NCBI RefSeq assembly: GCF_013122565.1
Contig: NZ_CP053258.1
Strand: one strand, 5' to 3'
From: Escherichia coli
GTDB lineage: Bacteria; Pseudomonadota; Gammaproteobacteria; Enterobacterales; Enterobacteriaceae
Length of the DNA stretch: 64,000 bases
A program made the position numbers and the translations under genes. Of the stretch, positions 1-23,948 are shown piece after piece. The stretch's first letter is position 1. Each line of letters begins with the position of its first letter. The notes beneath the pieces were generated by a model. That model saw only the letters and a program-made list of their open reading frames with translations, did no database searches and was not told the origin of the DNA.

Positions 1-375
1 ATAGCTGCCAATTTCAATATTGCTGCACATGACGCCCAGCAGCACCGAACGGTCGTCCGCGAGCACCGAGTAGTTATGCATGGTGTTACCAATGGTGCCA
101 CCCGCAAACTGATGGGTAATCAGGTTTTTCTGTTTTAGTTCCTGATAAAGCGCTTCGGCTACGTCATCCTCAATCACCAGTGAATGCCCGGCGCTTAATC
201 CATAACGCTCAATGAATTCATCATCCACTTTCGCTTCAATATCGACCAGCGTTTGATCGATACCCACTACCCAGGCAGCGCTGGTTTCGTTTTCTGGCTG
301 GAATTGCTGAAGCAGCGGATCGCGTGCATTTACGGGGAAGTAATGTTTGGATTTACGTTTACCGGGAAATTTCAT
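1..375 (-). CDS. gsk: inosine-guanosine kinase, N-terminal part (gene continues beyond window start)
   Basis: Reverse-complement translation from ATG at 373-375 reads MKFPGKRKSKHYFPVNARDPLLQQFQPENETSAAWVVGIDQTLVDIE..., recognised as Gsk; divergent from aes as in K-12. Absent from ORF track because it runs off the edge. Confidence 0.85.
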   Translation of the reverse strand, partial: MKFPGKRKSKHYFPVNARDPLLQQFQPENETSAAWVVGIDQTLVDIEAKVDDEFIERYGLSAGHSLVIEDDVAEALYQELKQKNLITHQFAGGTIGNTMHNYSVLADDRSVLLGVMCSNIEIGSY

Positions 376-526
376 GGTTGTTTTTACGGGTGGTTAACTG
401 AGCGGCGAATGTTAACACAATCTGACGGGAGCGCGCGAGACGCAGCCAGTTTCAATATCAGCAGGCGGGATCGCATTTTCATGGCAGTGGTTCCTTACAA
501 TGACGTCATTTGAAAGGAGTTTTTGC

Positions 527-1486
527 ATGAAGCCGGAAAACAAATTACCCGTTCTGGACCTTATCTCTGCTGAAATGAAGACCGTTGTGAATACTCTTCA
601 GCCGGATTTACCGCCCTGGCCCGCTACGGGAACGATTGCTGAGCAACGACAGTATTACACGCTTGAGCGCCGAATCTGGAATGCGGGCGCTCCAGAAATG
701 GCAACCAGAGCTTACATGGTTCCAACAAAATATGGGCAGGTGGAAACACGTCTCTTTTGTCCGCAGCCAGATAGCCCGGCGACGCTATTTTATTTGCATG
801 GCGGTGGTTTTATTCTCGGCAATCTCGATACCCACGATCGCATCATGCGCCTTTTGGCAAGCTACAGCCAATGTACGGTGATTGGCATTGATTACACCCT
901 TTCACCTGAAGCGCGTTTTCCGCAAGCGATAGAGGAAATTGTGGCTGCCTGTTGTTATTTCCACCAGCAGGCGGAGGATTATCAAATCAATATGTCCCGC
1001 ATTGGCTTTGCCGGTGATTCCGCAGGTGCCATGCTGGCGCTCGCCAGTGCGTTGTGGTTGCGTGATAAACAGATCGATTGCGGTGAAGTTGCGGGCGTTT
1101 TGCTGTGGTATGGGCTTTACGGATTACGGGATTCCGTGACACGTCGTCTGTTGGGCGGTGTCTGGGATGGCTTAACGCAACAGGAGTTGCAGATGTATGA
1201 AGAGGCGTATTTAAGCAACGACGCGGACCGCGAGTCGCCGTATTACTGTCTGTTTAATAATGATCTCACTCGCGAAGTTCCGCCCTGTTTTATTGCCGGG
1301 GCGGAGTTCGATCCGCTGCTGGATGACAGCCGTCTGCTTTACCAGACGTTAGCGGCGCATCAGCAGCCCTGTGAGTTCAAACTCTACCCAGGCACGCTGC
1401 ACGCCTTTTTGCATTATTCACGGATGATGAAAACCGCCGACGAGGCTCTTCGCGACGGCGCTCAGTTCTTTACCGCTCAGCTTTAG
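527..1486 (+). CDS. aes: acetyl esterase (alpha/beta hydrolase, HGGGF oxyanion motif, GDSAG nucleophile motif)
   Basis: ORF 500-1486; internal Met giving [12 protein letters not shown]... and 319 aa matches Aes; HGGG and GDSAG motifs visible. Confidence 0.93.
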
Positions 1487-2445
1487 CGATACGCGGCAAC
1501 AAGATTAGCCATCATTTCGATATGTTCCGGCGTGGCATTAAGCGCCGGAATATATTCATATTTTTTCCCGCCCGCACCGAGGAAGACCTCACGGTTTTGC
1601 TCGGCAATCTCTTCCAGCGTCTCCAGACAATCCGCAGCAAAGCCCGGGCACATCACCTGAATATGACCTACGCCTTTTTCTCCGAGCATTTTCAGCGTTT
1701 CGTCGGTATAAGGCATCAGCCAGGGTTCCCGGCCAAAGCGCGACTGAAAGGTCATCATCACTTTTTCCGGTGCCATCCCCAATGCGGAAGCCAGTTCACG
1801 AGTCGTTGTGCGGCAACGTTGCGGGTAATCATCGCCTTCATCGGCATAACGCTGGGGAATGCCATGATAAGAGAGCAGCAGCAGATCCGGTTCGCCATGT
1901 TTGGCAAAAGAAGCGCGTACGCTGTTCGCCAGTGCATTAATGTAATCGTGGTTATCGGCGTAATCACGTATAAACGATATCCCCGGAATGCTACGTTTGC
2001 GCGCCAGAATGCGTGCCAGTTCATCCCATACCGCACCGACCGTTGAACAGGAGTATTGCGGATAAAGCGGCAGCACCACAATATGATCTACATGCTCTGC
2101 CAGGAGTTCATCTACGGCGCTTTCCAGTGATGGCGAGCCGTAGCTCATTCCCAGCGCTACGGGCGTCTCCGGTAAACGTTGTGCCAGCGCCTGCTGTTGC
2201 TGGCGGCTGTAAACCATCAGTGGCGAGCCACCTTCCATCCAGACAGAGGCATACAGCTTCGCCACACGCGGCGAGCGCAGCGGCAAAATCACGCCGCGCA
2301 GCAATGGCCACCATAACAACCGTGAGGTATCAACCACGCGTCTGTCGCTTAAAAATTGTTTCAGATAGCGTTTTACCGCTTCAGGTGTGGGGGCATCGGG
2401 CGTACCCAGGTTTGCCAGCAGGATACCGGTTTTAGTCTGACGCAT
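1483..2445 (-). CDS. hemH: ferrochelatase
   Basis: 320-aa [31 protein letters not shown]... recognised as HemH; position between aes and adk as in K-12. Confidence 0.95.
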
Positions 2446-2576
2446 TACCGCCTCTTATCGATTCAACTTGTTGATAATTGTAGCGGAAAAGTGAAGAAGA
2501 AGAACTAATTGCTGTAAGAGGTATTGCCTGAGGAGGATGAGCAGACCTGCCCGAAAGCAGATCTGCTGCGGCTTGA

Positions 2577-3293
<717 letters not shown>

Positions 3294-3401
3294 TCAAGAA
3301 AGGCACCTGAGGCTGAAACGGTTAATGGCGAGATAATTTGCGGAAAGTGCAGATGATGAAAAGAAAAATGCCGGATGACACAAAGGTCATCCGGCATGAC
3401 A

Positions 3402-5276
3402 TCAGGAAACCAGCAGCTGGTTCATACGACGAATAAACAGGTTCGGATCTTCCAGCGTGCCGCGTTCTGCCAGCAGCGCCTGATCCAGCAGCAGTTCTAC
3501 CCACTCGCTGAACTTGGCTTCATCTTCAGTCTCTGCCGCACGTTTCACCAGTACGTGATCCGGGTTCAGTTCGAAGATGTATTTCACTTCTGGCACTTTC
3601 TGGCCCGCCGCAGCGAACAGTTTCGCCATCTGGGTGCTCATTTCATCCGCGTCGGTCGAAACGATCGCTGGCGTATCGGTCAGACGGTGAGTGAGACGGA
3701 CATCTTTCACGCGCTCGCCGAGCAGGGCTTTCACACGGTCGATGAACGGAGTCAGTGCTTTCTCCGCTTCTTTCGCGCTCTCATCAACTTCGTCAGCCAG
3801 TTTTTCCAGCGACTCGTCAACTTTAGACACCGACTGGAACGGTTTACCGTCGAACTCAGTCAGATAGTTCATCATCCACTCATCGATGCGGTCGGAAAGC
3901 AGCAGAACTTCGATGCCTTTCTTACGCAGCAGTTCCAGGTGCGGGCTGCTCTTCGCTGCCGCATAGCTGTCTGCAGTGATGTAGTAGATTTTCTCCTGCC
4001 CTTCTTTCATGCGGGAAACGTAGTCTTCCAGAGACACGGTCTGCGCAGAAGAATCGGTATGAGTAGAAGCAAAACGCAGCAGTTTGGCGATCGCTTCCTG
4101 GTTAGCGAAATCTTCTGCCGGACCTTCTTTCAGTACCAGGCCAAACTGTTGCCAGAAGGTCTGGTATTTTTCCGCGTCGTCTTTGGCCAGTTTTTCCAGC
4201 ATTTGCAGCACACGCTTGGTCAGCGCATTGCGCAGGTTACGCGTTACCGTGCTGTCCTGGAGGATTTCACGGGAAACGTTCAGCGGCAGATCGCTGGAGT
4301 CAATCAGACCACGCACGAAGCGCAGATAGTTCGGCATGAACTGTTCTGCGTCGTCCATGATGAACACACGCTGAACATACAGTTTCAGGCCGTGTTTATG
4401 ATCACGGTTCCACATATCCCACGGAGCCTGGGACGGGATGTACAGCAGGCTGGTGTACTCCTGCTTACCTTCAACACGGTTGTGGCTCCAGGTCAGCGGA
4501 TCGTTAAAGTCGTGGGCGATGTGTTTGTAGAACTCTTTGTACTCTTCATCGGTGATTTCCGACTTGTTACGAGTCCACAGCGCCTGCGCTTTGTTAATTT
4601 TCTCCCAGGAGATAACGGTTTCGCCGTCTTTCTCTTCGCGTTTTTCGATCTCTACCGGCAGCGCGATATGGTCGGAGTATTTGCTGATGATGGAACGCAC
4701 GCGCCAGTCATCGAGGAACTCGTCTTCGCCTTCACGCAGATGCAGGGTGATTTCAGTACCACGATCTTCTTTGGTGATGTCGGCAACGGTATATTCACCT
4801 TCGCCAGCCGATTCCCAGAACACGCCATTTTCTGGTTTTTCGCCTGCCGCGCGAGTACGCACGGTCACTTTGTCGGCCACGATAAACGCAGAGTAGAAAC
4901 CAACACCAAACTGACCGATCAGCTGGCTGTCTTTCGCCTGGTCAGAACCCAGGGATTCGAGGAATGATTTGGTACCGGATTTAGCGATAGTCCCCAGATG
5001 GTCGATCACTTCGTCGCGGGTCATCCCCACGCCGTTATCGGAGATGGTCAGCGTGCGCTTGTCTTTATCGAAAGAGACACGAACGCGCAGTTCGCCATCA
5101 CCTTCGTACAGGTCCGGGTTAGAGAGCGCACGGAAACGCAACTTGTCCGCCGCATCGGAGGCGTTAGAGATAAGCTCACGCAGGAAGATTTCTTTATTGG
5201 AATAGAGAGAATGGATCATCAGGTGCAGAAGCTGTTTCACTTCTGACTGAAAACCGCGAGTTTCTTGTCCTTTCAT
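3402..5276 (-). CDS. htpG: Hsp90-family molecular chaperone HtpG
   Basis: 624-aa [45 protein letters not shown]... recognised as HtpG. Confidence 0.97.
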
Positions 5277-5327
5277 GTAGGTCTACCTCAATAATGCCAT
5301 TTTAAGGTTAAAAACAGGATGAGGGAG

Positions 5328-5356
5328 AGATGGGGACAAGGGAGAATAATTTCAAG
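5328..5356 (-). promoter_or_regulatory. sigma32 (heat-shock) promoter of htpG
   Basis: Minus strand reads CTTGAAA-14 nt-CCCCATCT about 30 nt upstream of the htpG start, matching the sigma32 consensus CTTGAA/CCCCATnT. Confidence 0.7.
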
Positions 5357-5380
5357 CGAGAGCAGGTGATCCTGCTCTCG
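5357..5380 (-). terminator. perfect 10-bp stem hairpin (cgagagcagg/cctgctctcg, loop tgat) downstream of recR, abutting the htpG promoter -35
   Basis: Inverted repeat read directly; lies between recR stop and the htpG promoter; flanking U-richness is moderate. Confidence 0.5.
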
Positions 5381-5385
5381 TTTGC

Positions 5386-5990
5386 TTAAAAACGAATCTT
5401 ATGACGCCCGGCAAGGGAATGCGACAACGTGGTGCCGTCGACCATTTCCAGCTCGCCGCCAACCGGTACGCCATGAGCGATTCGGCTGGCTTCCACGTCA
5501 TATTGCGCGCAAAGCTCGGCAATGTAGTTAGCGGTAGCTTCACCTTCAACCGTGGGATTGGTGGCGAGGATCACTTCAGTGATTTTTTCCTCTGCCAGAC
5601 GCTGTTCCAGACGATCAAGCCCGATATCATCCGGACCGATGCCGTCCAGCGGTGACAGATGCCCCATCAACACAAAATAACGACCTGAAAACTGCCCCGT
5701 CTGCTCAATGGCGTAAATGTCCGCCGGACTCTCCACCACGCAGATTTGACCGTTTTCCTGACGACGCGGATTCGAACAGATGTTACAGACTTCCTGTTCG
5801 GTGAAGGTGCGGCAATCGGCGCAGTGGCCGATTTCCGACATCGCCCGGGTGAGCGCCTGCGCCAGACGCATCCCGCCGCTACGATCGCGCTGAAGCAGCG
5901 TGAACGCCATACGCTGCGCCGACTTCGGGCCAACGCCCGGCAGACAGCGCAGTGCTTCCATAAGCTGTGTTAACAGCGGGCTGGTTTGCA

Positions 5991-5991
<1 letters not shown>
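5386..5991 (-). CDS. recR: recombination protein RecR
   Basis: 201-aa [33 protein letters not shown]... with C4 zinc-finger cysteines; start overlaps ybaB stop. Confidence 0.96.
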
Positions 5992-6335
<344 letters not shown>

Positions 6336-6372
6336 TCACGTTAAGGATGACGAACGTAAGCTGTGCTTACGA

Positions 6373-8304
6373 TCAAATGGGGCGGATACTTTCTTCATCC
6401 AGCTCCGCATCGAAAAACCGACGCAGGGTCTGAATATTATTATCCGCAATAATGGACTCGCGCGCCTGCGCAAGTTTTTCTTCGTATATCGCCTGACGCC
6501 ACTCCAGCGGCGTACGCACCGCGGGATTATCATCTTCAACGATAGTCAGTTCAACCGTTGAACCTTTTAACATGCTCAACGCTTCAGCCAGTTTTTGCTG
6601 TGCACCGCGGTTGTTCAAATGCCGCTGAGAGGAGCGCAAATGCAGACATACTGCGTTATCACTCTCCTCTTTCCAGGCATTTAACGCCACCTGTTCGACC
6701 AGTTTTGGTAGCGAAAGTTGACTCACCTGAGCCGCCCACGCGTCGCGCTCAATGGCTTCTGCCGCCAGCTTCGCCGCCAGTTCCGGCGTTTTTTCATGTT
6801 CCAGCGCTTTTTTCAGCGCCTTCGGCGTGGCGACCACTTCTTTTTGCTGCATCACTGGAGTGGTCGCCTTCCAGCGATACGCTTCTTTTTTAGCTGGCGC
6901 TTTTTCCAGCGCCGATGGCACCGGACGCGCCTGAACGCGATCTGTGACCGAAGCCAGTCTTTCCAGCGCAGCGTTATTCACCGGCCGCGCGCGGGTAGCG
7001 GCTGCCGGTTCACTCTTTTTTGCTTTGGTTGCTCCCTGCACGCGCTGCAACTGCTGGCGCGCCGCCAGCACCTGGCTGGTGGTTTCCGGGAGCGGTACAG
7101 TCGGTGCCTGCTGCGGCGCTGATTGCGGTTGCGGCGGCACCTGGGTTGGGGTCATTACTGCCGTTGGCGCGACGGGTGCAAAGGACTGTCGTGGCACTTC
7201 TGGCTCAGGCAGCGGCATACGCGGATGGAATGCCAGCGCGCGCAGCAGCGTCATCTCAACGCCCATGCGGCGGTCCGGCGCATACGGTAATTCTTTGCGA
7301 CCAATCAACAGCGTCTGATAGTAAAGCTGAATATCCGTCGGCGGTATGGTGCGCGCCAGTTCACGCATCCGCAGCTCGATGGCGGCCATGTCGTTGCCAA
7401 GTGCAGCAGGCGAAAGTTGTACCATCGCAATACGATGCAACAGACCGAGCATTTCCACCAGCAACGCTTCCCACTCGATACCACGGGCAGCGGCTTCATT
7501 AATCAGCGCCATTACGCGCTCGCCGTTGGCCTCGACCATCGCTTCAACCAGCGACAGCGCCTGATCGTCGTCAAGCGTACCCAGCATCGTACTGACCGCC
7601 TGGGTTGAAACCTGGCCGTCACCGCTGGCAATCGCCTGGTCGGTCAGACTTAAGGCATCTCGCAGGCTGCCTTCAGCGGCGCGTGCCAGCAATTGCAGCG
7701 CCCGCGGCTCGTGAGCGATATGTTCTTCGTTGAGGATGTGCTCAAGCTGATGGCGAATTTGCTCGACATCCAGCGCCTTGAGATGAAATTGCAGACAGCG
7801 TGACAAAATCGTCACCGGCAATTTCTGTGGATCGGTCGTCGCCAGCAGAAACTTAACGTGCTCCGGCGGCTCTTCAAGGGTTTTTAACAGTGCGTTGAAG
7901 CTGTGGCGCGACAGCATATGCACTTCGTCGATGAGATAAACTTTGAAACGACCACGCGCCGGAGCGTACTGGACGTTATCCAGCAGGTCGCGGGTATCTT
8001 CAACTTTGGTGCGCGAGGCGGCGTCGATTTCAATCAGATCGACAAAGCGCCCCTGCTCGATTTCACGACAGTTATCGCACACGCCGCACGGCGTCGCGGT
8101 AATGCCGGTTTCGCAGTTTAGCCCCTTCGCCAGCAGTCGGGCGATAGAGGTTTTTCCGACGCCACGGGTACCGGAAAAAAGATAAGCATGATGAATACGC
8201 CCTAACGACAAGCCGTTCGCCAGTGCGGTCAGCACATGTTCCTGGCCGACGACGTCAGCAAAGGTTTGTGGGCGCCATTTTCGGGCTAAGACCTGATAAC
8301 TCAT
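6373..8304 (-). CDS. dnaX: DNA polymerase III tau subunit (gamma produced by -1 frameshift)
   Basis: 643-aa ORF MSYQVLARKWRPQTFADVVGQEHVLTALANGL... with Walker A GTRGVGKTS. Confidence 0.97.
   Translation of the reverse strand: MSYQVLARKWRPQTFADVVGQEHVLTALANGLSLGRIHHAYLFSGTRGVGKTSIARLLAKGLNCETGITATPCGVCDNCREIEQGRFVDLIEIDAASRTKVEDTRDLLDNVQYAPARGRFKVYLIDEVHMLSRHSFNALLKTLEEPPEHVKFLLATTDPQKLPVTILSRCLQFHLKALDVEQIRHQLEHILNEEHIAHEPRALQLLARAAEGSLRDALSLTDQAIASGDGQVSTQAVSTMLGTLDDDQALSLVEAMVEANGERVMALINEAAARGIEWEALLVEMLGLLHRIAMVQLSPAALGNDMAAIELRMRELARTIPPTDIQLYYQTLLIGRKELPYAPDRRMGVEMTLLRALAFHPRMPLPEPEVPRQSFAPVAPTAVMTPTQVPPQPQSAPQQAPTVPLPETTSQVLAARQQLQRVQGATKAKKSEPAAATRARPVNNAALERLASVTDRVQARPVPSALEKAPAKKEAYRWKATTPVMQQKEVVATPKALKKALEHEKTPELAAKLAAEAIERDAWAAQVSQLSLPKLVEQVALNAWKEESDNAVCLHLRSSQRHLNNRGAQQKLAEALSMLKGSTVELTIVEDDNPAVRTPLEWRQAIYEEKLAQARESIIADNNIQTLRRFFDAELDEESIRPI
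7010..7021 (-). promoter_or_regulatory. dnaX: dnaX programmed -1 ribosomal frameshift site (slippery A AAA AAG, then -1 frame stop)
   Basis: Minus strand reads GCA AAA AAG AGT GAA encoding ...KAKKSE...; heptamer A AAA AAG at 7015-7021; shifting -1 gives AAA AAA GAG TGA, so the gamma product ends at TGA 7010-7012. Confidence 0.9.
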
Positions 8305-8432
8305 TGGCAGGCTCTGAAACGCTGGAAGGTGGATTCACGAAGGGGTAATGCTAACACAGCCCCGTCAGAACGGCGAGGCTGAATGCACATCTTGTGCTGT
8401 CCGTAGCGTGGGCAGCACAAGACTGGTGATAA

Positions 8433-8984
8433 TTAATGGCCCGGGAACGGGACAAGGCTGTAGCTGGTAATGCCCTGTTTTTCGAGACGCTGTTCGCCGC
8501 CGAGATCGAACAGGTTGATAATGAACGCAGCGTCAGCCACTTCACCACCCAGACGACGGATCAGTTTAACGGTCGCTTCGATAGTGCCGCCGGTTGCCAG
8601 CAGATCGTCCACCACCAGAACTTTGTCGCCCGGTTTGATGGCATCAACGTGGATTTCCAGCTGATCGGTGCCGTATTCCAGATCGTAAGTTTCACTGATG
8701 GTTTCACGCGGCAGTTTGCCCGGTTTACGGACCGGTACAAAGCCAACGCCCAGACCCAGAGCTACCGGAGCGCCAAACAAGAAGCCACGCGCTTCGGTGC
8801 CGACAACTTTGGTAATGCCCGCATTTTTGTAACGCTCAACCAGCAAGTCGATGCTGAGAGCGTAAGCTTTCGGGTCTTCCAGTAAGCTGGTGACATCGCG
8901 GAAAAGAATGCCGGGTTTTGGGTAGTCCTGAATGCTTTTGATGCTATTTTTGAGATACTCAAGCTGCTGTGCAGTCGCGGTCAT
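8433..8984 (-). CDS. apt: adenine phosphoribosyltransferase
   Basis: ORF 8433-9038; internal start gives [35 protein letters not shown]... (183 aa). Confidence 0.95.
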
Positions 8985-9136
8985 AAGTGTATGCCTGCTT
9001 GTTACGGTGGTACTCACGGCGCGTTTTAAACGTATCAAAAGTAACAGTTGTTTAACCTTTGACCGCCTGCGCCTGTGCTCGAAAACGCCAGAATGTACTG
9101 GCTGTACGCAATAATTGCAACTGCGATTGTTGTGCT

Positions 9137-9514
9137 TCAGTGCTTTTCTTGCTTTTCATCAATCACCGGAATTCGCCACATATAGAAAAGCAAACAGGCG
9201 AGAATTACCAGCAACATGATGCGCACCCATGGCATCTGGACGAACCACAGAGAAATGGCAAACGTGAGCAAAATAAGCAAAATCGCCCGCGGTTTGACGC
9301 CGCGCGGCATCGCATGATGTTTCTGCCAGAAACGTAGATAGCTGCCAAACCATGAGCGGTACAGCAACCAGGCGTGAAAGCGCGGGGAAGAACGGGCAAA
9401 GCACCAGGCCGCCAGCAGGATAAACGGCGTCGTCGGTAATACCGGTAATACCACGCCCAGCGTACCCAGCACTACCGCCAGCCAGCCAATGATGATTAAA
9501 ATGATTCGTTGCAT
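9137..9514 (-). CDS. ybaN: DUF454 inner membrane protein YbaN
   Basis: 125-aa hydrophobic [34 protein letters not shown]...; position matches K-12. Confidence 0.9.
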
Positions 9515-9583
9515 ATTGAGTGTTGTCAGCTTACAGAGTGGCTACTTTAGCATAACAATTATCATTTTCATTGAGGTCTTATC

Positions 9584-10111
9584 GTGAAAACCGCCCTGCT
9601 GCTGGAAAAACTGGAAGGACAGCTCGCCACGCTGCGCCAGCGTTGTGCCCCGGTAGCGCAATTTGCCACGCTAAGTGCCCGCTTTGACAGGCACCTTTTT
9701 CAGACCCGTGCGACAACACTGCAGGCTTGTCTCGATGAGGCGGGCGATAATTTGGCTGCGCTTCGTCATGCGGTTGAGCAGCAACAGCTGCCGCAAGTCG
9801 CCTGGCTGGCAGAACATCTGGCGGCGCAACTGGAGGCTATAGCGCGTGAAGCCACAGCCTGGTCGCTACGCGAGTGGGATAGCGCACCACCCAAAATTGC
9901 CCGCTGGCAGCGTAAACGTATTCAGCATCAGGATTTTGAGCGGCGTCTACGTGAAATGGTTGCCGAACGCAGAGCCCGCCTGGCGCGGGTGACCGATCTC
10001 GTGGAACAGCAAACGCTGCATCGTGAAGTGGAAGCCTATGAAGCGCGCCTGGCGCGGTGTCGCCATGCGCTGGAAAAAATCGAAAACAGGTTAGCGCGTT
10101 TAACCCGCTAG
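9584..10111 (+). CDS. priC: primosomal replication protein N'' (PriC)
   Basis: 175-aa [33 protein letters not shown]...; position matches K-12. Confidence 0.92.
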
Positions 10112-10124
10112 CAATGGAGAGAGT

Positions 10125-10286
10125 ATGTCACTGGAAAATGCCCCCGACGATGTCAAACTGGCCGTCGATTTAATTGTGCTGCTGGAAGAAAATCAGATCC
10201 CAGCCCGCACCGTGCTGCGCGCGCTGGATATTGTAAAACGCGATTATGAAAAGAAATTAACGCGCGATGATGAGGCGGAAAAGTGA
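10125..10286 (+). CDS. ybaM: small DUF2496 protein YbaM (53 aa)
   Basis: Read manually: ATG 10125 ... TGA 10284-10286 encodes [53 protein letters not shown]; below the ORF-track size cut-off; 13 nt after priC. Confidence 0.85.
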
Positions 10287-10339
10287 GAAATAAATGGGGT
10301 GGCTAAATGTCCCCTAAGGTTGCGGGCAAACGCAAAACT

Positions 10340-10437
10340 GCCTGATGCGCTACGCTTATCAGGCCTACACCGCTCCTGCAATATATTGAATTCTTGCGGT
10401 TTCGTAGGCCGGATAAGGCGGTCACGCCGCATCCGGC
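10340..10437. repeat. REP/BIME element (two inverted REP units) between ybaM and mscK
   Basis: gcctgatgcgctacgcttatcaggcctac and inverted partner gtaggccggataaggcggtcacgccgcatccggc are typical E. coli REP sequences. Confidence 0.8.
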
Positions 10438-10497
10438 ATGAACAACGCGCACTTTGTTAGCAATCTCGGGGCAACTAAATGTCGCCCCCTTTTGTTT

Positions 10498-13400
10498 TTA
10501 CCCTACCGCTGGCGTCGGGTCGTCGCCTTTGTAGTCGCGTTTGACTTCCGTCACCTCATCGCCCTTCTCGTTGTGTAGATGCACTTCAAGCTGGTTAAAG
10601 GCAATGTTGATGTCGTTTTCACGGCACAGCTGATCGATAGTACGGTTCAGCTCATCGACAGTACGGCTACGGTCACGCAGTTCACGCACATACAGACGCA
10701 GCTCATGATCCAACGTGCTGGCACCAAATGCCGTAAAGAAGACCTCCGGCATTGGTTCGTGCATCACCCTTGGGTGCTCAGTCGCCGCCTTCAGTAACAC
10801 TTTACGCACTTTTTCCAGATCGGAGCCATAGGCCACGCCGAGACGGATCACCAGACGCGTAGTCGTGTCAGTCAACGACCAGTTGATCAGACGCTCGGTA
10901 ACAAACGCTTTGTTCGGGATGATCACTTCTTTTCGATCGAAATCGGTAATCGTTGTCGCACGAATACGGATCTTACTTACCGTCCCCGAGAAGCTACCAA
11001 TGGTTACCGTATCGCCAATACGCACCGGACGTTCGAACAGGATGATCAAACCAGAGACAAAGTTACCGAAGATCTCCTGTAAGCCAAAACCAAGACCTAC
11101 GGATAATGCTGCCGCCAGCCACTGGAGTTTATCCCACGAGACGCCCAGCGATCCGAACACCGTCATCGCACCAACGGCAATAATGATGTAGTTAAGGATG
11201 GTAGTAATGGCATACGACGCGCCCTGACGCATATTCAGTCGCGAGAGCACCAGCACTTCCAGCAAACCAGGCAGGTTGCGAATCAACGCCCAGGCCACCA
11301 TTGAGGCGATAATCGCAAACAACAGACTGCCCATGGTGACGTTTTTCACCACCGCAGCGCCAGCTTCAGTACCGTTGTAATGCCAGAGCGTAATGCTGTC
11401 GAGATAGCTGAACACGGTGATCAAATCGGACCAAATTGCCCAGAACATGACACCGAACAGCGCAAACATCAGCAACATGGTAATACGCAGCGTCTGCTGG
11501 TTAACTTGCTCCAGTGCAATGGTGGGTTCTTCCGGCGGTTCGGCACCTTCTGCGCCCTCTTTCACCAGATTCTGCCGACGCGCCAGCGCACGACGCCAGG
11601 CGATACGCCGCGCCGCTACGCTTAAGCCGCGCAATACCGTCTGGTACAGCAGGTTCCAGATGATCACCAAATAAACGGTTTCAATCCAACGCCCGGAGAG
11701 GCGCAGCGTGGTGTAGAAGTACCCCGTGGCGGTCAGCACCATCAACGCAATCGGGATAATCGACAGTACGGTAATGGTGACCAGTCGCATGGTGTGCGAC
11801 TCTTTATCACGCCAGCTTTCACGGCACATCGGCCACACCAGGAAGGCAATCAGCAGCAGGTTGAAGAAAATCATCGCCTGCCCCAGCACATCATCCATCA
11901 GATGCAGCGGGGAAAGTTCTGCCACCACAGACCAGAAATGGATGGGCAGCAATGCGAGACTGATGCGGACAATTTGCCGACGCCAGTGGCTGGTCTGCTG
12001 CTCCGGCATGCCGAAGTGACGCACGGCAACGCCGTTTTTCTCCAGTACCTTCCAGCACAGGCCAAACACCAGCCAGAAAATCGCCAGTTTTTTGCTGAAC
12101 GACCATAGCAATTCGCTGATGTTGAGCTGCATGGTCAACAGAATCAGGCCAACCGCGAGAATAATCAGGCACACCGGCAGCGCGCGGATCAGGTCGATAA
12201 GGATCGCTTTTGGTGTGTTGAGCTGGCTGTCGTTACGCAGGGAACCCACAGCGGAAGCCAGTTTCTGTTGATACGCTTTCAGCCAGCCCAGACGCCAGTG
12301 GATCAGTCCGGCAATCAACAGCAGCGGCAAACCAGCGAGGAAAGCGATAAAAACGGCGGGCCAGGCTTTTTCCCAGTTCACCGTGATTTTCATCGACTTA
12401 AATTCATCTTTCAGGCTTTGCGGGAACGCTTTGATCCAGTCCCAGTCCATTGGACGGTTACTGTTCACCCAAAAGATTTGCTGAGTCAGGATGGATTTCA
12501 GGTTTTTCGATACGCTCATTAACTGCTGCTGGTTGATTTGCAAGTTAATGGCCATCATCAATTGGTTACCCAACTGTTTGTTAAGCTGATCCAGCAATTC
12601 GCGACGCATATCAACCACTTGCAATAATGCATCGTGAACTTCGCTGTTGACTTCGTTGGTGTGACCTTCTTCCAGTTTGTTGACGAATGCATCGCTCTGG
12701 AAGAGTGCATCACGCTGCTGGTTAACTTCAAACTGTTCGAGACGCAAATCCGCGATGCGGTTGGTCATGTTTTCCAGTTCATCCGCCGAGGGCAGCGTTT
12801 GTTGTTGCTGGTAAAGGATACGAGACAACAGCAGGCTGCCCTTCAGGACGGCAATCTGCTCTTTAATATTGCGTTCCGATTGCAGCGCCCGCTCCAGCCA
12901 GTTTTTGACTTTAATGTTTTGCTGCATCAACTGATTACCGTTTTCAGTCGCGGTAATCAGACGCTGACTTAACTGCTGGTTAATTTCCAGTTCCTGCTTC
13001 ACCAGCGGATTAGCCTGAATACGCGCGGCTTCATCCGGGGAGATGGCTTCCTGCGCCGTTTTTTCAGTTAAAGTCAGGCGCTTGCTATTTACCGCTTCTT
13101 GCAACAGTTGTAACTGATGCTCCAGACGGGCGCTGTTCGCCGTCACGTAATCACGCTGCTTTTGCAAGGTATCCTGTAAGACAGTGTTCCCTTCCAGGCT
13201 TTTACGCTGCTGGTCAATCTCCGCATTCAGCAACGCCTGCTGGGCCTGCATTAACACTTTCTGGCTGGGACGTAAGGCCGTCTCGCCGACATCAGTCCCA
13301 TCCAGACGACTGCGAATTTGTTGCAGCTGCTGCGAAGCGTTATACATCGCATTTTGCACGCGTTCGGGCTGCGTCTGTAACGAAACCAACTGGCTGTTAT

Positions 13401-13860
13401 AAGACGCCAGATCGTTTTGTGCGTTCTGCAAATCGTCCAGCGCCTGGGCAACGCGAGTTTCCAGCTGGCGCAACGAAAGCGTACTCAGAATTTTGCGCGT
13501 TTCTTCGTCGTTATCGACATCGCTAAGTGCTGTTAACGCTGTGGTCGCCTGACGCATTTTTTCCGGCGCTTCAGCGACTTTTTGCCGTAGCTGAACTGTC
13601 TCTTCTTTTATGCGATCGATTTTATCAAGGGTGGCTAATGTATCTGTCAGATCCTGCTGCACCAGTTTGTCCTGAGCAGAAAGATCTTTTTGTTTATTCA
13701 GTGAGTCAAGTTGCGCCTGCAGGTCCGCTTTTGTCGGTAAATCACCATTCGATGACGCCCGCGCAAACGCCGTGTTCTGGCATAACAAGACAAAAACAAA
13801 AGCAATAAATGCTGAAAAAACAAAATGCCGTGATCGTTTGTAATACTGGAACATAGTCAT
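10498..13860 (-). CDS. mscK: potassium-dependent mechanosensitive channel MscK (KefA)
   Basis: 1120-aa ORF with signal sequence, long coiled-coil periplasmic region, multiple TM helices and C-terminal MscS-like domain. Confidence 0.96.
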   Translation of the reverse strand: MTMFQYYKRSRHFVFSAFIAFVFVLLCQNTAFARASSNGDLPTKADLQAQLDSLNKQKDLSAQDKLVQQDLTDTLATLDKIDRIKEETVQLRQKVAEAPEKMRQATTALTALSDVDNDEETRKILSTLSLRQLETRVAQALDDLQNAQNDLASYNSQLVSLQTQPERVQNAMYNASQQLQQIRSRLDGTDVGETALRPSQKVLMQAQQALLNAEIDQQRKSLEGNTVLQDTLQKQRDYVTANSARLEHQLQLLQEAVNSKRLTLTEKTAQEAISPDEAARIQANPLVKQELEINQQLSQRLITATENGNQLMQQNIKVKNWLERALQSERNIKEQIAVLKGSLLLSRILYQQQQTLPSADELENMTNRIADLRLEQFEVNQQRDALFQSDAFVNKLEEGHTNEVNSEVHDALLQVVDMRRELLDQLNKQLGNQLMMAINLQINQQQLMSVSKNLKSILTQQIFWVNSNRPMDWDWIKAFPQSLKDEFKSMKITVNWEKAWPAVFIAFLAGLPLLLIAGLIHWRLGWLKAYQQKLASAVGSLRNDSQLNTPKAILIDLIRALPVCLIILAVGLILLTMQLNISELLWSFSKKLAIFWLVFGLCWKVLEKNGVAVRHFGMPEQQTSHWRRQIVRISLALLPIHFWSVVAELSPLHLMDDVLGQAMIFFNLLLIAFLVWPMCRESWRDKESHTMRLVTITVLSIIPIALMVLTATGYFYTTLRLSGRWIETVYLVIIWNLLYQTVLRGLSVAARRIAWRRALARRQNLVKEGAEGAEPPEEPTIALEQVNQQTLRITMLLMFALFGVMFWAIWSDLITVFSYLDSITLWHYNGTEAGAAVVKNVTMGSLLFAIIASMVAWALIRNLPGLLEVLVLSRLNMRQGASYAITTILNYIIIAVGAMTVFGSLGVSWDKLQWLAAALSVGLGFGLQEIFGNFVSGLIILFERPVRIGDTVTIGSFSGTVSKIRIRATTITDFDRKEVIIPNKAFVTERLINWSLTDTTTRLVIRLGVAYGSDLEKVRKVLLKAATEHPRVMHEPMPEVFFTAFGASTLDHELRLYVRELRDRSRTVDELNRTIDQLCRENDINIAFNQLEVHLHNEKGDEVTEVKRDYKGDDPTPAVG

Positions 13861-13987
13861 GATGAATGAAGGTTTCTGAACCTGAAGAACGACCTGAAAA
13901 AGTCAAACCGCAAGAATATCACGACGCAATGAACCAGAATAGCAACGACGAAAATGTCCAGGAAAAATCCTGGAGTCAGATTCAGGG

Positions 13988-14635
13988 TTATTCGTTAGTG
14001 GCAGGATTACGAAGCGTGGGGCACAGGAGATACATCTCCAGTAAGATGGCGACGTAATCGCGGGCTTCTTTTTTAAGATCAAAAGATTGCGGGGCAAAGA
14101 GCCAGTTTTCCATCAGGCCGGAAATATAGCCGCGCATAATAATCGCTGCCCGACGCGTCATTAAATCCGCAGGCAACATTTTCGCTTCAATACAATGTTT
14201 TAACGTTTGTTCTATACGGTCATAACTTTCCAGACAGAGATTACGTTGTGCCTGTTGCACAACAGCCATTTCTCCGACAAATTCGCATTTGTGGAATATA
14301 ATCTCCATCAATAATCGACGCCGTTCTTCTGTCACCGTGGATTCAAGAACATGAATTAATATCTCTCTTAATACTGAGAGTGGATCGCCAGGGAATTTTG
14401 CCTGATACTCAAGCTCTAGTTCACCAATATTGGATTCTGACAGTTCCCAGATCTCACTGAACAAATCCGACTTGTCTTTAAAATGCCAGTAGATTGCACC
14501 GCGCGTAACGCCAGCTGCTTTTGCAATCTCGCCCAGCGAGGTGGATGATACCCCCTGCTGTGAGAAAAGACGTAGAGCCACATCGAGGATGTGTTGGCGC
14601 GTTTCTTGCGCTTCTTGTTTGGTTTTTCGTGCCAT
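13988..14635 (-). CDS. acrR: TetR-family repressor AcrR
   Basis: 215-aa [55 protein letters not shown]...; divergent from acrA. Confidence 0.96.
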
Positions 14636-14663
14636 ATGTTCGTGAATTTACAGGCGTTAGATT

Positions 14664-14687
14664 TACATACATTTGTGAATGTATGTA
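14664..14687. promoter_or_regulatory. AcrR operator: 24-bp palindrome TACATACATTTGTGAATGTATGTA in the acrR-acrA intergenic region
   Basis: Palindrome read directly; corresponds to the known AcrR binding site. Confidence 0.85.
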
Positions 14688-14776
14688 CCATAGCACGACG
14701 ATAATATAAACGCAGCAATGGGTTTATTAACTTTTGACCATTGACCAATTTGAAATCGGACACTCGAGGTTTACAT

Positions 14777-15970
14777 ATGAACAAAAACAGAGGGTTTACG
14801 CCTCTGGCGGTCGTTCTGATGCTCTCAGGCAGCTTAGCCCTAACAGGATGTGACGACAAACAGGCCCAACAAGGTGGCCAGCAGATGCCCGCCGTTGGCG
14901 TAGTAACAGTCAAAACTGAACCTCTGCAGATCACAACCGAGCTTCCGGGTCGCACCAGTGCCTACCGGATCGCAGAAGTTCGTCCTCAAGTTAGCGGGAT
15001 TATCCTGAAGCGTAATTTCAAAGAAGGTAGCGACATCGAAGCAGGTGTCTCTCTCTATCAGATTGATCCTGCGACCTATCAGGCGGCATACGACAGTGCG
15101 AAAGGTGATCTGGCGAAAGCCCAGGCTGCAGCCAATATCGCGCAATTGACGGTGAATCGTTATCAGAAACTGCTCGGTACTCAGTACATTAGTAAGCAAG
15201 AGTACGATCAGGCTCTGGCTGATGCGCAACAGGCGAATGCTGCGGTAACTGCGGCGAAAGCTGCCGTTGAATCTGCGCGGATCAATCTGGCTTACACCAA
15301 AGTCACCTCTCCGATTAGCGGTCGCATTGGTAAGTCGAACGTGACGGAAGGCGCATTGGTACAGAACGGTCAGGCGACTGCGCTGGCAACCGTGCAGCAA
15401 CTTGATCCGATCTACGTTGATGTAACCCAGTCCAGCAACAACTTCCTGCGCCTGAAACAGGAACTGGCGAATGGCACGTTGAAACAAGAAAACGGCAAAG
15501 CCAAAGTGTCGCTGATCACCAGTGATGGTATTAAGTTCCCGCAGGACGGTACGCTGGAATTCTCTGACGTTACCGTTGATCAGACCACTGGGTCTATCAC
15601 CCTACGCGCTATCTTCCCGAACCCGGATCACACTCTGCTGCCGGGTATGTTCGTGCGCGCACGTCTGGAAGAAGGGCTTAATCCAAACGCTATTTTAGTC
15701 CCGCAACAGGGCGTAACCCGTACGCCGCGTGGCGATGCCACCGTACTGGTAGTTGGCGCGGATGACAAAGTGGAAACCCGTCCGATCGTTGCAAGCCAGG
15801 CTATTGGCGATAAGTGGCTGGTGACAGAAGGTCTGAAAGCAGGCGATCGCGTAGTAATAAGTGGGCTGCAGAAAGTGCGTCCTGGTGTCCAGGTAAAAGC
15901 ACAAGAAGTTACCGCTGATAATAACCAGCAAGCCGCAAGCGGTGCTCAGCCTGAACAGTCCAAGTCTTAA
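14777..15970 (+). CDS. acrA: multidrug efflux pump periplasmic adaptor AcrA
   Basis: ORF 14741-15970; internal start gives MNKNRGFTPLAVVLMLSGSLALTGCDDKQ (lipoprotein signal), 397 aa. Confidence 0.96.
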   Translation: MNKNRGFTPLAVVLMLSGSLALTGCDDKQAQQGGQQMPAVGVVTVKTEPLQITTELPGRTSAYRIAEVRPQVSGIILKRNFKEGSDIEAGVSLYQIDPATYQAAYDSAKGDLAKAQAAANIAQLTVNRYQKLLGTQYISKQEYDQALADAQQANAAVTAAKAAVESARINLAYTKVTSPISGRIGKSNVTEGALVQNGQATALATVQQLDPIYVDVTQSSNNFLRLKQELANGTLKQENGKAKVSLITSDGIKFPQDGTLEFSDVTVDQTTGSITLRAIFPNPDHTLLPGMFVRARLEEGLNPNAILVPQQGVTRTPRGDATVLVVGADDKVETRPIVASQAIGDKWLVTEGLKAGDRVVISGLQKVRPGVQVKAQEVTADNNQQAASGAQPEQSKS

Positions 15971-15989
15971 CTTAAACAGGAGCCGTTAA

Positions 15990-19142
<3,153 letters not shown>

Positions 19143-19160
19143 TACAACGTGTAATCACTA

Positions 19161-19183
19161 AGGCCGCGCAAGCGGCCTTTTTT
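19161..19183 (+). terminator. rho-independent terminator after acrB
   Basis: Stem aggccgc/gcggcct with loop gcaa followed by T-run tttttt. Confidence 0.8.
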
Positions 19184-19687
19184 ATGCATAACCTACGAAC
19201 ATTAAGGAGTAATTGAACCACCAACTCAGGATCTCATACGAAAACCAGTATTAACCACGGATAAAATTCATAAAAAATACTGATTGTTAGTTAATTTATA
19301 TTAAGTAGCGCTAATAGATTTAATAATCCATAATCATTTAGAGGCTATTCTTAATTATTTGCGGTAATTCTTTATTCATTCCTCGGTTATTACGTCATAT
19401 TCAGAGCAATCCTGGTATTAGTGTCACCAATGTCATCTGGCGATAATCCTGAAATGTTATGAACTGTTCGAGCAAACTGCTTTTACCTACTGCGGGTTGG
19501 TGCTAGTATGAAAAAGTGAGTCCTGTCCCGCTTCCTTCCTAATTGTAATTTTTCGTAATAATGCGATGAAAACCTGCAAAGAGTGGCTTATAGTTAAGCT
19601 AACAAACGAGAGGGCAAGTCCAGGTCAGTAAGTTTTTTCCATCCCGAAAGGTGTCCGTTAGTTCAACCACTAAGAAGGGGACGCGTT

Positions 19688-20062
19688 ATGGATGAATACT
19701 CACCCAAAAGACATGATATCGCACAGCTTAAGTTTCTCTGTGAAACCCTGTATCATGACTGCCTTGCAAACCTTGAAGAAAGCAATCATGGCTGGGTAAA
19801 CGACCCAACCTCGGCGATCAACCTCCAGTTGAATGAACTGATTGAGCATATTGCGACCTTCGCACTTAATTACAAAATTAAGTATAATGAAGACAATAAG
19901 CTCATTGAGCAGATCGACGAATATCTGGATGACACCTTTATGTTGTTCAGTAGTTATGGTATTAATATGCAGGATCTTCAGAAATGGCGGAAGTCAGGTA
20001 ATCGACTATTCCGTTGTTTTGTCAATGCGACAAAAGAGAATCCTGCGAGTTTATCTTGTTAG
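19688..20062 (+). CDS. tomB: Hha toxicity modulator TomB (YbaJ)
   Basis: 124-aa [43 protein letters not shown]...; immediately upstream of hha. Confidence 0.93.
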
Positions 20063-20087
20063 AATTATTACAACCATGGGTAGAAGT

Positions 20088-20306
20088 ATGTCCGAAAAAC
20101 CTTTAACGAAAACCGATTATTTAATGCGTTTACGTCGTTGCCAGACAATTGACACGCTGGAGCGTGTTATCGAGAAAAATAAATACGAATTATCAGATAA
20201 TGAACTGGCGGTATTTTACTCAGCCGCAGATCACCGCCTCGCCGAATTGACCATGAATAAACTGTACGACAAGATCCCTTCCTCAGTATGGAAATTTATT
20301 CGCTAA
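20088..20306 (+). CDS. hha: haemolysin expression modulator Hha (H-NS co-regulator)
   Basis: Internal start of ORF 19842-20306 gives [72 protein letters not shown] (72 aa). Confidence 0.95.
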
Positions 20307-20477
20307 TAAATAATTCGCTTTCGGAGCTATAACCGGCTGTTTATTAAGAATTTTATACTTTTTCGCCATGAAGACATACCCTATGTGATCTTTATCACAC
20401 AGATGTAATGGGAACGTTCTCTTCACTGACTTTTCGTCTTACTGTGTTGCCGCATTTTCAGCAACCAGAGGTCAGTA

Positions 20478-21029
20478 ATGAGCACAGAAAAAGAAAAGAT
20501 GATTGCTGGTGAGTTGTATCGCTCGGCAGATGAGACGTTATCTCGCGATCGCCTGCGCGCTCGTCAGCTTATTCACCGATACAATCATTCCCTGGCGGAA
20601 GAGCACACATTACGCCAGCAAATTCTCGCTGATCTATTCGGTCAAGTGACAGAGGCTTATATTGAGCCAACGTTTCGCTGTGACTATGGCTATAACATTT
20701 TTCTCGGTAATAATTTTTTCGCCAACTTCGATTGCGTGATGCTTGATGTCTGCCCTATTCGCATCGGTGATAACTGTATGTTGGCACCAGGCGTTCATAT
20801 CTACACGGCAACACATCCCATCGACCCTGTAGCACGTAATAGCGGTGCTGAACTGGGGAAACCCGTCACCATCGGTAATAACGTCTGGATTGGCGGACGC
20901 GCGGTCATTAACCCTGGTGTGACCATTGGTGATAACGTCGTGGTAGCCTCAGGTGCAGTTGTCACAAAAGATGTCCCGGACAACGTTGTCGTGGGCGGTA
21001 ATCCAGCCAGAATAATTAAAAGATTGTAA
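20478..21029 (+). CDS. maa: maltose O-acetyltransferase (hexapeptide-repeat)
   Basis: 183-aa [39 protein letters not shown]... with left-handed beta-helix hexapeptide repeats. Confidence 0.94.
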
Positions 21030-21144
21030 TCGGTTTTTCGCAACTGTTATGCAAAATTGTGGTAAATCTGTTACTTTCCCTCTACTATTCCCACGTTAAA
21101 ATAGGGTGTTCCCTGGAAAGTTGCAGATACCACGAAGGCAAACG

Positions 21145-21615
21145 ATGACCGAAATACAACGCCTGCTGACCGAAACGATTGAGTCTCTGAATACCCGCGA
21201 AAAACGCGACAACAAACCCCGCTTTAGTATCAGTTTTATCCGTAAACATCCGGGGCTGTTTATCGGTATGTACGTTGCTTTTTTTGCCACCCTGGCGGTG
21301 ATGTTGCAGTCCGAAACGCTTTCAGGCTCTGTCTGGCTACTGGTGGTATTATTTATCCTGCTTAATGGTTTCTTCTTTTTCGATGTCTACCCACGCTACC
21401 GCTATGAAGATATCGACGTGCTGGATTTCCGCGTTTGCTATAACGGCGAATGGTACAACACGCGCTTTGTACCTGCCGCGCTGGTTGAAGCCATCTTGAA
21501 CTCTCCGCGTGTCGCGGATGTTCAAAAAGAACAACTGCAAAAAATGATCGTCCGTAAAGGTGAATTGTCTTTTTACGATATTTTTACCCTTGCTCGCGCC
21601 GAATCAACATCTTAA
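21145..21615 (+). CDS. ylaC: inner membrane protein YlaC
   Basis: ORF 21106-21615; internal start gives [47 protein letters not shown]... (156 aa). Confidence 0.9.
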
Positions 21616-21772
21616 GTTAGAGTTACATACCAGGCGTAAAGCTCTGCGCCTGGTCAAATGACAACGTTCGTTTCCACCCATCACTTCATGAAATACCGGT
21701 TCTACCTCCTTATCTCCTGCCAGCCTTTTTCCACAATCGGATATACTTTCTCTACACTGTGTTAATAAGGAT

Positions 21773-23329
21773 ATGCTGGTGAGAACACGACATCTGGTCG
21801 GCCTTATTTCGGGAGTACTGATTCTTTCAGTATTGCTGCCTGTCGGCTTAAGCCTCTGGCTGGCCCATCAGCAGGTAGAAACATCATTTATTGAAGAGCT
21901 GAATACCTATTCCTCCCGCGTCGCTATTCGGGCCAATAAGGTGGCGATACAAGGGAAAGATGCGCTGCAAGAGCTGGAAAGATGGCAAGGCGCTGCCTGT
22001 AGCGAAGCCCATCTCATGGAAATGCGTCGGGTATCTTACAGTTATCGCTATATTCAGGAAGTGGTTTATATCGATAACAACGTTCCCCAGTGTTCGTCTC
22101 TGGAGCATGAAAGCCCGCCCGATACCTTCCCCGAGCCAGGTAAAATTTCGAAAGATGGTTATCGTGTCTGGTTAACATCGCATAACGATTTAGGCATTAT
22201 CCGTTACATGGTCGCCATGGGAACGGCACATTATGTCGTCATGATCGACCCCGCTTCCTTTATTGATGTCATTCCCTATAGCTCATGGCAAATTGATGCC
22301 GCCATTATTGGCAATGCCCATAACGTTGTCATAACCAGCAGCGATGAAATTGCTCAGGGAATTATTACCAGGCTACAAAAAACACCCGGTGAGCATATCG
22401 AAAATAATGGAATCATTTACGATATCCTGCCCTTCCCGGAGATGAATATTTCGATCATCACCTGGGCTTCAACGAAAATGTTGCAGAAAGGCTGGCATCG
22501 GCAAGTCTTTATTTGGTTACCGCTCGGGTTGGTGATTGGCCTGCTGGCAGCGATGTTTGTGCTGCGTATTTTGCGCCGTATCCAGTCACCGCATCATCGG
22601 CTGCAGGATGCTATCGAAAATCGTGATATTTGCGTGCACTATCAGCCAATTGTCTCCTTAGCCAATGGCAAAATTGTCGGTGCTGAGGCACTGGCGCGCT
22701 GGCCGCAGACAGACGGTAGTTGGTTGTCACCAGATAGTTTTATTCCGCTGGCACAGCAAACGGGCCTTTCTGAGCCATTGACGCTACTGATTATAAGAAG
22801 TGTCTTTGAAGATATGGGCGACTGGCTGCGTCAGCATCCGCAGCAGCATATTTCGATCAATCTTGAATCCACCGTGCTCACCTCGGAAAAAATCCCGCAA
22901 TTGCTGCGTGAAATGATCAATCACTATCAGGTTAATCCCAGACAGATCGCGCTTGAACTCACTGAACGCGAGTTTGCCGATCCGAAAACCAGCGCCCCGA
23001 TAATTTCTCGCTACCGGGAGGCAGGCCATGAAATTTATCTTGATGATTTTGGTACGGGGTATTCAAGTTTAAGTTATTTACAGGATCTGGATGTCGACAT
23101 TCTGAAGATCGATAAATCTTTCGTTGATGCGCTGGAATATAAAAATGTCACGCCGCATATCATCGAAATGGCAAAAACACTGAAACTGAAAATGGTAGCG
23201 GAGGGAATCGAAACCAGTAAACAAGAAGAGTGGTTACGCCAGCATGGCGTGCACTACGGTCAGGGCTGGCTCTACAGCAAGGCATTACCGAAAGAAGATT
23301 TCTTACGCTGGGCCGAGCAACATTTATGA
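21773..23329 (+). CDS. pdeB: c-di-GMP phosphodiesterase PdeB (YlaB); CSS-motif sensor plus EAL domain
   Basis: 518-aa ORF with N-terminal TM segment, periplasmic CSS-type domain and C-terminal EAL domain (ELTE...DDFGTGYSS); the start may instead be the GTG at 21779. Confidence 0.9.
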   Translation: MLVRTRHLVGLISGVLILSVLLPVGLSLWLAHQQVETSFIEELNTYSSRVAIRANKVAIQGKDALQELERWQGAACSEAHLMEMRRVSYSYRYIQEVVYIDNNVPQCSSLEHESPPDTFPEPGKISKDGYRVWLTSHNDLGIIRYMVAMGTAHYVVMIDPASFIDVIPYSSWQIDAAIIGNAHNVVITSSDEIAQGIITRLQKTPGEHIENNGIIYDILPFPEMNISIITWASTKMLQKGWHRQVFIWLPLGLVIGLLAAMFVLRILRRIQSPHHRLQDAIENRDICVHYQPIVSLANGKIVGAEALARWPQTDGSWLSPDSFIPLAQQTGLSEPLTLLIIRSVFEDMGDWLRQHPQQHISINLESTVLTSEKIPQLLREMINHYQVNPRQIALELTEREFADPKTSAPIISRYREAGHEIYLDDFGTGYSSLSYLQDLDVDILKIDKSFVDALEYKNVTPHIIEMAKTLKLKMVAEGIETSKQEEWLRQHGVHYGQGWLYSKALPKEDFLRWAEQHL

Positions 23330-23370
23330 ATTGTAGGGCTGACGGCACGCCGCACAGCCCGTCACGCTAC

Positions 23371-23724
23371 CTATTCGTCGATGATTGACTCGAATCCGCC
23401 ATAAATCATTCGCTTACCATCAAACGGCATGGACTCGCCGAACTCTTTCATCCGTGGGTCCGACATCATCTTTTGATTAGCAGCGTCGCGGACCTCTTTT
23501 GAAGGGTATTCAATCCAGCTAAAGACAACCTCTTCATTCTCTTCCGCTTTCACTGCCATACGAAAATCGGTCACTTTGCCATCCGGTACATCGCTGGCCC
23601 AGCATTCGACAATACGAAGCGCACCGAACTCTTTAAATAATGGCGCAGCCTTAGCGGCCATTTCCCGATAGGCATCCTTTTTATCGGCAGGAACGGCAAC
23701 CACAAAACCATCAACATACTTCAT
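23371..23724 (-). CDS. ybaA: DUF1428 protein YbaA
   Basis: 117-aa ORF MKYVDGFVVAVPADKKDAYREMAAKAAPLFKEFGALRIVECWASD... Confidence 0.9.
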   Translation of the reverse strand: MKYVDGFVVAVPADKKDAYREMAAKAAPLFKEFGALRIVECWASDVPDGKVTDFRMAVKAEENEEVVFSWIEYPSKEVRDAANQKMMSDPRMKEFGESMPFDGKRMIYGGFESIIDE

Positions 23725-23834
23725 CAGACATACCTCCGAAGCGTACTGCGCAGCCAGACAATTCTTGCGACGTCAGTTGTGGTTAAAGTTTAGCCACGCT
23801 GGGATTTTTTGACGAAACGGTGGGAGGCAGAAAT

Positions 23835-23948
23835 GGGTGGGGGCCCTGCCAGCTACATCCCGGCACACGCGTCATCTGCCTTGGCTGCTTCCTTCCGGAC
23901 CTGACCTGGTAAACAGAGTAGCGTTGCGGGAGAACCAACAGAGCCCCC
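23835..23948 (-). ncRNA. ffs: 4.5S RNA (signal recognition particle RNA)
   Basis: Reverse complement of 23835-23948 reads GGGGGCTCTGTTGGTTCTCCCGCAACGCTACTCTGTTTACCAGGTCAGGTCCGGAAGGAAGCAGCCAAGGCAGATGACGCGTGTGCCGGGATGTAGCTGGCAGGGCCCCCACCC (114 nt), the E. coli ffs sequence as I recall it; location between ybaA and atl matches K-12. Confidence 0.93.

Follow-up and report, generated by a model that had tools for sequence, protein, structure and literature searches.

The window analyzed in this study is a stretch of 64,000 nucleotides of Escherichia coli DNA (contig NZ_CP053258.1 of assembly GCF_013122565.1). Its whole length aligns collinearly with the core chromosome of E. coli (100% coverage), and it includes gsk/aes/hemH/adk/htpG/recR/ybaB/dnaX/apt, acrAB, ffs, lon, clpXP, tig, cyo and dxs/thiI. 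The dnaX gene lies on the minus strand at 6373..8304. Its zero-frame open reading frame (ORF) encodes tau, 643 aa in length, as assigned from the ORF itself, from Pfam and from the dnaX annotation in collinear E. coli genomes. The Pfam matches in the product are DNA_pol3_delta2 (PF13177) at residues 20-178, an ATPase lid (PF22608) at residues 182-230, gamma3, or gamma/tau domain III (PF12169), at residues 232-358, the DnaB-binding tau domain IV (PF12168) at residues 417-498 and the alpha-binding tau domain V (PF12170) at residues 500-640. The clamp-loader ATPase domains I-III are followed, in order, by tau domains IV and V. When the gene is compared with that of a K-12-derived strain, 17 positions differ, of which 15 are synonymous and two give the replacements A239T and P522A. 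This ratio of 15 synonymous to 2 non-synonymous substitutions makes the divergence of the window look natural. None of the 17 differences falls inside the 65-nt element described below.

Near the start of the region encoding tau domain IV, a slippery heptamer A_AAA_AAG is located at 7021..7015 on the minus strand, made up of the last base of Ala428 followed by Lys429 and Lys430. It corresponds to nucleotides 1284-1290 of the ORF, where the zero frame reads GCA AAA AAG AGT GAA (A428 K429 K430 S431 E432). The initial annotation had placed A AAA AAG in the tau frame at the KAKKSE codons, and this is correct to the base, with the X_XXY_YYZ phase at Lys429-Lys430. No other heptamer of this type and phase occurs in the whole dnaX ORF. 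The minus strand from 7021 to 7010 is AAAAAAGAGTGA, which splits as AAA AAA GAG TGA. Past the slip, the -1 frame has the codon GAG (7015..7013) and then the stop TGA (7012..7010), so that its earlier description as terminating two codons later holds in the sense of one sense codon followed by the stop. The gamma coding region (7010..8304, minus strand) accordingly runs in the zero frame from 8304 through AAG (7017..7015) and then in the -1 frame, giving a truncated protein of 431 aa that ends in KAKKE. The shift site is 12 residues into the Pfam match of tau domain IV, that is, at its start. Judged from these domain boundaries, gamma (residues 1-431) would retain the clamp-loader domains I-III and would lack domain V entirely and domain IV almost entirely. 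It should be mentioned that two further copies of AAAAAAG are found in the tau-specific part of dnaX, at 6885..6891 and 6807..6813 on the minus strand. Both are in the AAA_AAA_G phase, not the canonical X_XXY_YYZ, and any shift at either of them would touch tau only.

Upstream of the heptamer, an internal Shine-Dalgarno (SD)-like sequence, AGGGAG, is present at 7037..7032 on the minus strand, within the codons CAG GGA G.. of the zero frame. The spacer between it and the heptamer is exactly 10 nt, and the upstream SD-like element for which a check had been proposed is thereby found. Its duplex with the 3' tail of 16S rRNA, the sequence of which we take to be the textbook one as the window does not include the 16S gene, has a predicted energy of -7.4 kcal/mol. 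Pairing to the anti-SD that is as good or better is predicted for 5 of the 1,925 8-mers in dnaX (top 0.26%), AGGGAG included; the other four all come from one different site in the gene. A separate SD-like run, AAGAGGAGAGUG, is seen at 6660..6671 (minus strand) in the tau-only part of dnaX, at nucleotides 1634-1645 of the ORF and over the codons W-K-E-E-S-D. Its predicted anti-SD pairing reaches -9.1 kcal/mol, stronger than the -7.4 kcal/mol of the frameshift SD box.

Downstream, the heptamer is separated from a stem by a purine-rich linker, AGUGA (7010..7014, minus strand), which shares bases with the -1 frame GAG (7015..7013) and includes the -1 stop UGA (7012..7010). The stimulatory stem-loop itself spans 6980..7009 on the minus strand and is assigned from the minimum free energy (MFE) fold, the Rfam consensus pairing and comparative support. 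Its sequence, ACCGGC-A-GCCGC-UACCC-GCG-C-GC-G-GCCGGU, forms 11 bp in two helices, with one C bulged out, an internal A/G mismatch and a loop of 5 nt. Folding of the 45 nt on the 3' side of the heptamer, as had been suggested for the downstream region, returned this 11-bp hairpin (7009..6980) with an MFE of -19.7 kcal/mol, starting 5 nt downstream of the heptamer. When compared with dinucleotide shuffles of the same 45 nt, the energy has a z value of -1.67, and 13 of the 200 shuffles fold as well; for a 111-nt fold the z value is -1.42. The GC-rich composition of the region makes this energy unremarkable against shuffles, and it is the Rfam model and the comparative data, not the folding energy by itself, that support the structure.

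A search against Rfam identifies the complete DnaX ribosomal frameshifting element (RF00382) at 6976..7040 on the minus strand, with all 65 nt aligned to model positions 1-65 of 65. The match scores 96.8 bits against a gathering threshold of 35 (E = 5.8e-20), and its pairing is that of the MFE fold. At least 5,372 of the 5,426 complete E. coli genomes carry these 65 nt at 100% identity. RefSeq/PGAP labels the same 65-nt stretch 'DnaX frameshifting element' inside dnaX of E. coli genomes, and in NZ_OZ282453.1, the best collinear genome, the element is annotated at the same collinear coordinates, 6976..7040. The site had been called a functional element that no ORF caller reports. This stands for a plain ORF caller, which gives the 643-aa ORF only for dnaX, but not for RefSeq/PGAP, which already marks the element. 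That the element is not novel, as the initial annotation also said, is borne out by the RF00382 match, the RefSeq annotation and the identity to the studied E. coli element. The cassette is already known, and the copy found here is without any distinguishing feature. The value of the present result is one of annotation only: dnaX should carry a second, ribosomal-slippage CDS (gamma, 431 aa) and an RF00382 feature.

The bare heptamer is not enriched in the window, with 20 copies of AAAAAAG versus 16.2 ± 3.8 expected. A count so close to chance makes the heptamer alone uninformative, and its phase and context were used instead. The same count would fit a reading in which two Lys codons adjoin by coincidence and the heptamer is a decayed or accidental site with no recoding function in this lineage. 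Also in keeping with such a coincidence are the hairpin z value of only -1.67 and the occurrence of an in-frame AAAAAAG in 104 of 3,000 codon-shuffled dnaX ORFs (~3.5%). However, the number of shuffled ORFs falls to 11 for an in-frame heptamer with a -1 stop within 3 codons, to one when an upstream SD-like site is included and to none when the downstream hairpin is included as well. The absence of all four features at the published spacings from all 3,000 shuffled ORFs speaks against coincidence, as do the Rfam E-value and the 100% identity of the sequence to the experimentally characterized E. coli element. The joint presence of the heptamer, the -1 stop, the SD and the hairpin at the published spacings is more than chance.

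For the comparative analysis, one genome per species was scanned with ACCAANNCAAAAAAGAGTGA, whose 18 fixed bases cover the heptamer, the linker and some of the spacer, with the SD box and stem arms left free. The resulting sample is selected for these fixed parts; it speaks only for site-bearing lineages, and its sequences are related. Among the 74 loci obtained, 52 are in dnaX of Enterobacterales; the remaining 22 come from unrelated phyla, match the pattern by chance and provide an internal control. The SD box is at the same position in all of the dnaX loci, as AGGGAG in 51 of 52 and as AGGGGG in one, versus 0 of 22 controls. The hairpin is found at the same offset in each of the 50 dnaX sites with enough flanking sequence, with energies from -18.3 to -26.2 kcal/mol, whereas the 22 chance matches have a mean MFE of -5.5 kcal/mol and are without hairpin or SD box. 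The single AGGGGG belongs to dnaX of Lelliottia sp. WAP21 (L056 6274..6384). This A-to-G change would convert an A-U pair with the anti-SD to a G-U wobble, and the pairing may be retained.

Constraint at synonymous sites was evaluated on 33 full-length dnaX genes with 74-98% amino-acid identity to that of the window. Compared to a gene-wide synonymous-codon identity of 0.63, the SD codons CAG and GGA are 100% and 97% identical, respectively, and the stem-arm codons CCG, GCA, CGG and CCG are 94-100% identical. The codons of the apical part of the hairpin vary in both nucleotide and amino acid. The preservation of the SD and the stem arms at synonymous sites across genera is a further argument against an accidental Lys-Lys pair, to which, with all of the above taken together, we give almost no credence.

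The pairing itself was examined in the 50 sequences. In the register of the E. coli stem, 92.3% of cells are paired, versus 27-52% in controls with the pairing partner slid, and none of 500 shuffles reaches 92.3%. The cells scored as unpaired come from genera with the inner helix in another register. The closing pair is A:U in 45 of the 50 sequences and G:C in 5 (Erwinia/Pantoea), and one inner G:C is replaced by A:U in an Enterobacter; in all, two pairs are changed on both sides. Compensatory changes are few and, the sequences being related, probably stand for only two or three independent events. When the hairpins were aligned with MAFFT and folded with RNAalifold, the outer helix alone was recovered, because the inner helix shifts in register and loop length between genera. 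In per-sequence folds, the inner helix is rebuilt with a different sequence in each lineage.

The other Enterobacterales (Citrobacter, Salmonella, Enterobacter, Leclercia, Lelliottia, Erwinia and Pantoea) have the same architecture and spacings as the window, and the core of the outer helix, CCGGC/GCCGG, is invariant between the window and the other dnaX genes. The differences are located in the inner helix and loop, where the encoded amino acids also differ between the window and other genera. Unlike in the window, the inner helix is GCGC/GCGC with an 8-nt loop in Enterobacter; in Erwinia and Pantoea it is GCGCA/UGCGC, with a loop of 3-5 nt and G:C as the closing pair; in Pseudescherichia the bulge is shifted. 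It is noted that the Erwinia/Pantoea cassettes (L040, L046, L050, L063 and L071) have a hairpin of -22 to -26 kcal/mol that is more compact and more stable than in E. coli, and in which the inner helix is without bulge or mismatch. A stronger E. coli stem leads to more frameshifting (PMC5009743), so the gamma:tau ratio might differ in Erwinia/Pantoea.

All parts of the cassette are present and conserved, with the phase, the spacing, the predicted fold and the sequence identity established as given above. The heptamer, AGGGAG, the 10-nt spacer, AGUGA, the 11-bp bulged stem-loop and the 431-aa gamma are the same as in the studied E. coli cassette (RF00382), with zero differences within the element; the gene-level differences from the K-12-derived strain lie outside of it. 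The initial annotation took the site for the known recoding event that produces gamma, and the occurrence of all cassette elements with the published sequence and spacing agrees with that view. We regard it as nearly certain that the site is the canonical E. coli dnaX -1 programmed ribosomal frameshift cassette, unchanged. From published experiments on the identical sequence, we infer the slipping, its efficiency and its kinetic route.

Two other ways of making gamma are known from bacteria in which dnaX has the same outcome, a shorter gamma beside tau, but in which other mechanisms operate and the heptamer-SD-hairpin cassette is not used. One is transcriptional slippage, as in Thermus thermophilus dnaX, in which gamma would arise from slippage of RNA polymerase on the A-run. 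A homopolymeric A-run is indeed present at the E. coli site, with nearby stops in both non-zero frames, and the precedent is from another dnaX (PMC5009743). However, the run consists of 6 A (CAAAAAAG), whereas efficient bacterial slippage has been described for 9 A or T (PMC5009743). Slippage of the polymerase would also leave unexplained the conserved SD box and hairpin at ribosome-scale spacings. In addition, mutants of the identical cassette act translationally, in purified systems with defined mRNA (PMC7282821, PMC5389563). We consider this origin of gamma in E. coli to be extremely improbable. The other is proteolysis of tau, as in Caulobacter crescentus, which could supply gamma wholly or additionally, the frameshift then being minor. 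Although gamma is made in this manner in another bacterium (PMC5009743), proteolysis would not account for the conserved SD, heptamer, -1 stop and hairpin, and about 50% of ribosomes shift on the identical E. coli sequence (PMC5009743). There is, in our judgment, hardly any likelihood that it is the source of gamma here.

The programmed ribosomal frameshift would proceed as follows. Ribosomes translating dnaX would place tRNA-Lys on the AAA and AAG of A_AAA_AAG. The stem-loop, 5 nt downstream, would then be positioned at the mRNA entry channel and would hinder translocation, while AGGGAG, 10 nt upstream, would be base-paired behind the ribosome to the 3' end of 16S rRNA. In the course of stalled, repeated attempts at translocation by EF-G, both tRNAs would re-pair one base back on AAA_AAA. 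The slipped ribosome would then decode GAG as Glu and terminate at UGA. In this way about half or more of the ribosomes would be expected to give gamma (431 aa, domains I-III), which would lack both domain IV, to which DnaB binds, and domain V, which binds the alpha subunit of Pol III.

Published work on the E. coli system provides the basis for these steps. The A_AAA_AAG heptamer is especially shift-prone in E. coli, where one tRNA-Lys (anticodon UUU, with a modified U34) reads AAA as well as AAG and forms the better pairing with AAA (PMC5009743). As a check on tRNA-Lys, the window was searched for tRNA genes, and none was found in it. Frameshifting at dnaX has been reported at 50%, with termination one codon later (PMC5009743), and at 50-80% efficiency with a stimulatory hairpin of ~10 bp and the AGUGA linker (PMC7282821). 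The stem-loop hinders translocation and the binding of tRNA at the A site (PMC7282821). In vitro, the efficiency is 84%, and it drops to 2% in the heptamer mutant G_AAG_AAG, to 50% when AGGGAG is mutated to AUAUCA and to 20% upon deletion of the hairpin (PMC5389563). Slippage occurs mainly by a translocation-dependent route that involves both tRNAs, and a single-tRNA 'hungry' route operates when aminoacyl-tRNA is limiting (PMC6771820).

The site sets the tau:gamma ratio in the clamp loader of DNA polymerase III and is a principal model system for -1 frameshifting. We have compared it to other known -1 shifts. IS911 and the IS3 family, as well as HIV-1 gag-pol, share with dnaX an X_XXY_YYZ heptamer followed by a downstream structure, and IS elements often have an upstream SD stimulator, as in dnaX (PMC5009743). 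In the IS911/IS3-family and HIV-1 cases, the shift extends the protein into a new ORF with low to moderate efficiency. In contrast, the dnaX shift shortens the protein, with the stop one codon past the shift site, and its efficiency is ~50% or more (PMC5009743, PMC7282821).

We also considered whether the gamma:tau ratio might be tuned, in this sparsely sampled E. coli-like lineage, by sequences outside the 65-nt cassette. Candidates for such tuning may be the flanking complementarity of the 111-nt fold and the second, stronger SD-like run AAGAGGAGAG, located ~360 nt downstream in the tau-only region. In the 111-nt MFE fold, a long-range helix encloses the cassette. Over the 50 sequences, 72.3% of its cells are paired, 71 of 500 shuffles do equally well, and many pairs are broken. 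This test gave no covariation support for the flanking helix, which was rejected. Tuning from outside the cassette is, in our view, very unlikely.

Some further observations concern the rest of the window. Among the 5,426 complete E. coli genomes, the best identity is 98.8%, 99.0% and 98.6% for three segments of 24-25 kb, with a different best genome for each. The window may stem from a sparsely sampled Escherichia lineage or from a Shigella, a group absent from this genome collection. In Megablast searches, window positions 1..25000 match an E. coli genome at a median of 18 places, compared with 1 for the other two segments. This segment therefore holds some short multi-copy sequence, perhaps REP-type repeats. 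The signal recognition particle RNA ffs (RF00169) is found at 23844..23940 on the minus strand with 68.1 bits, at the same place as in the collinear E. coli genome. The sRNA family sraA (RF02029) is matched over its full length at 41592..41687 on the plus strand, in the gap between the lon and clpX ORFs, with 106.7 bits against a gathering threshold of 56.
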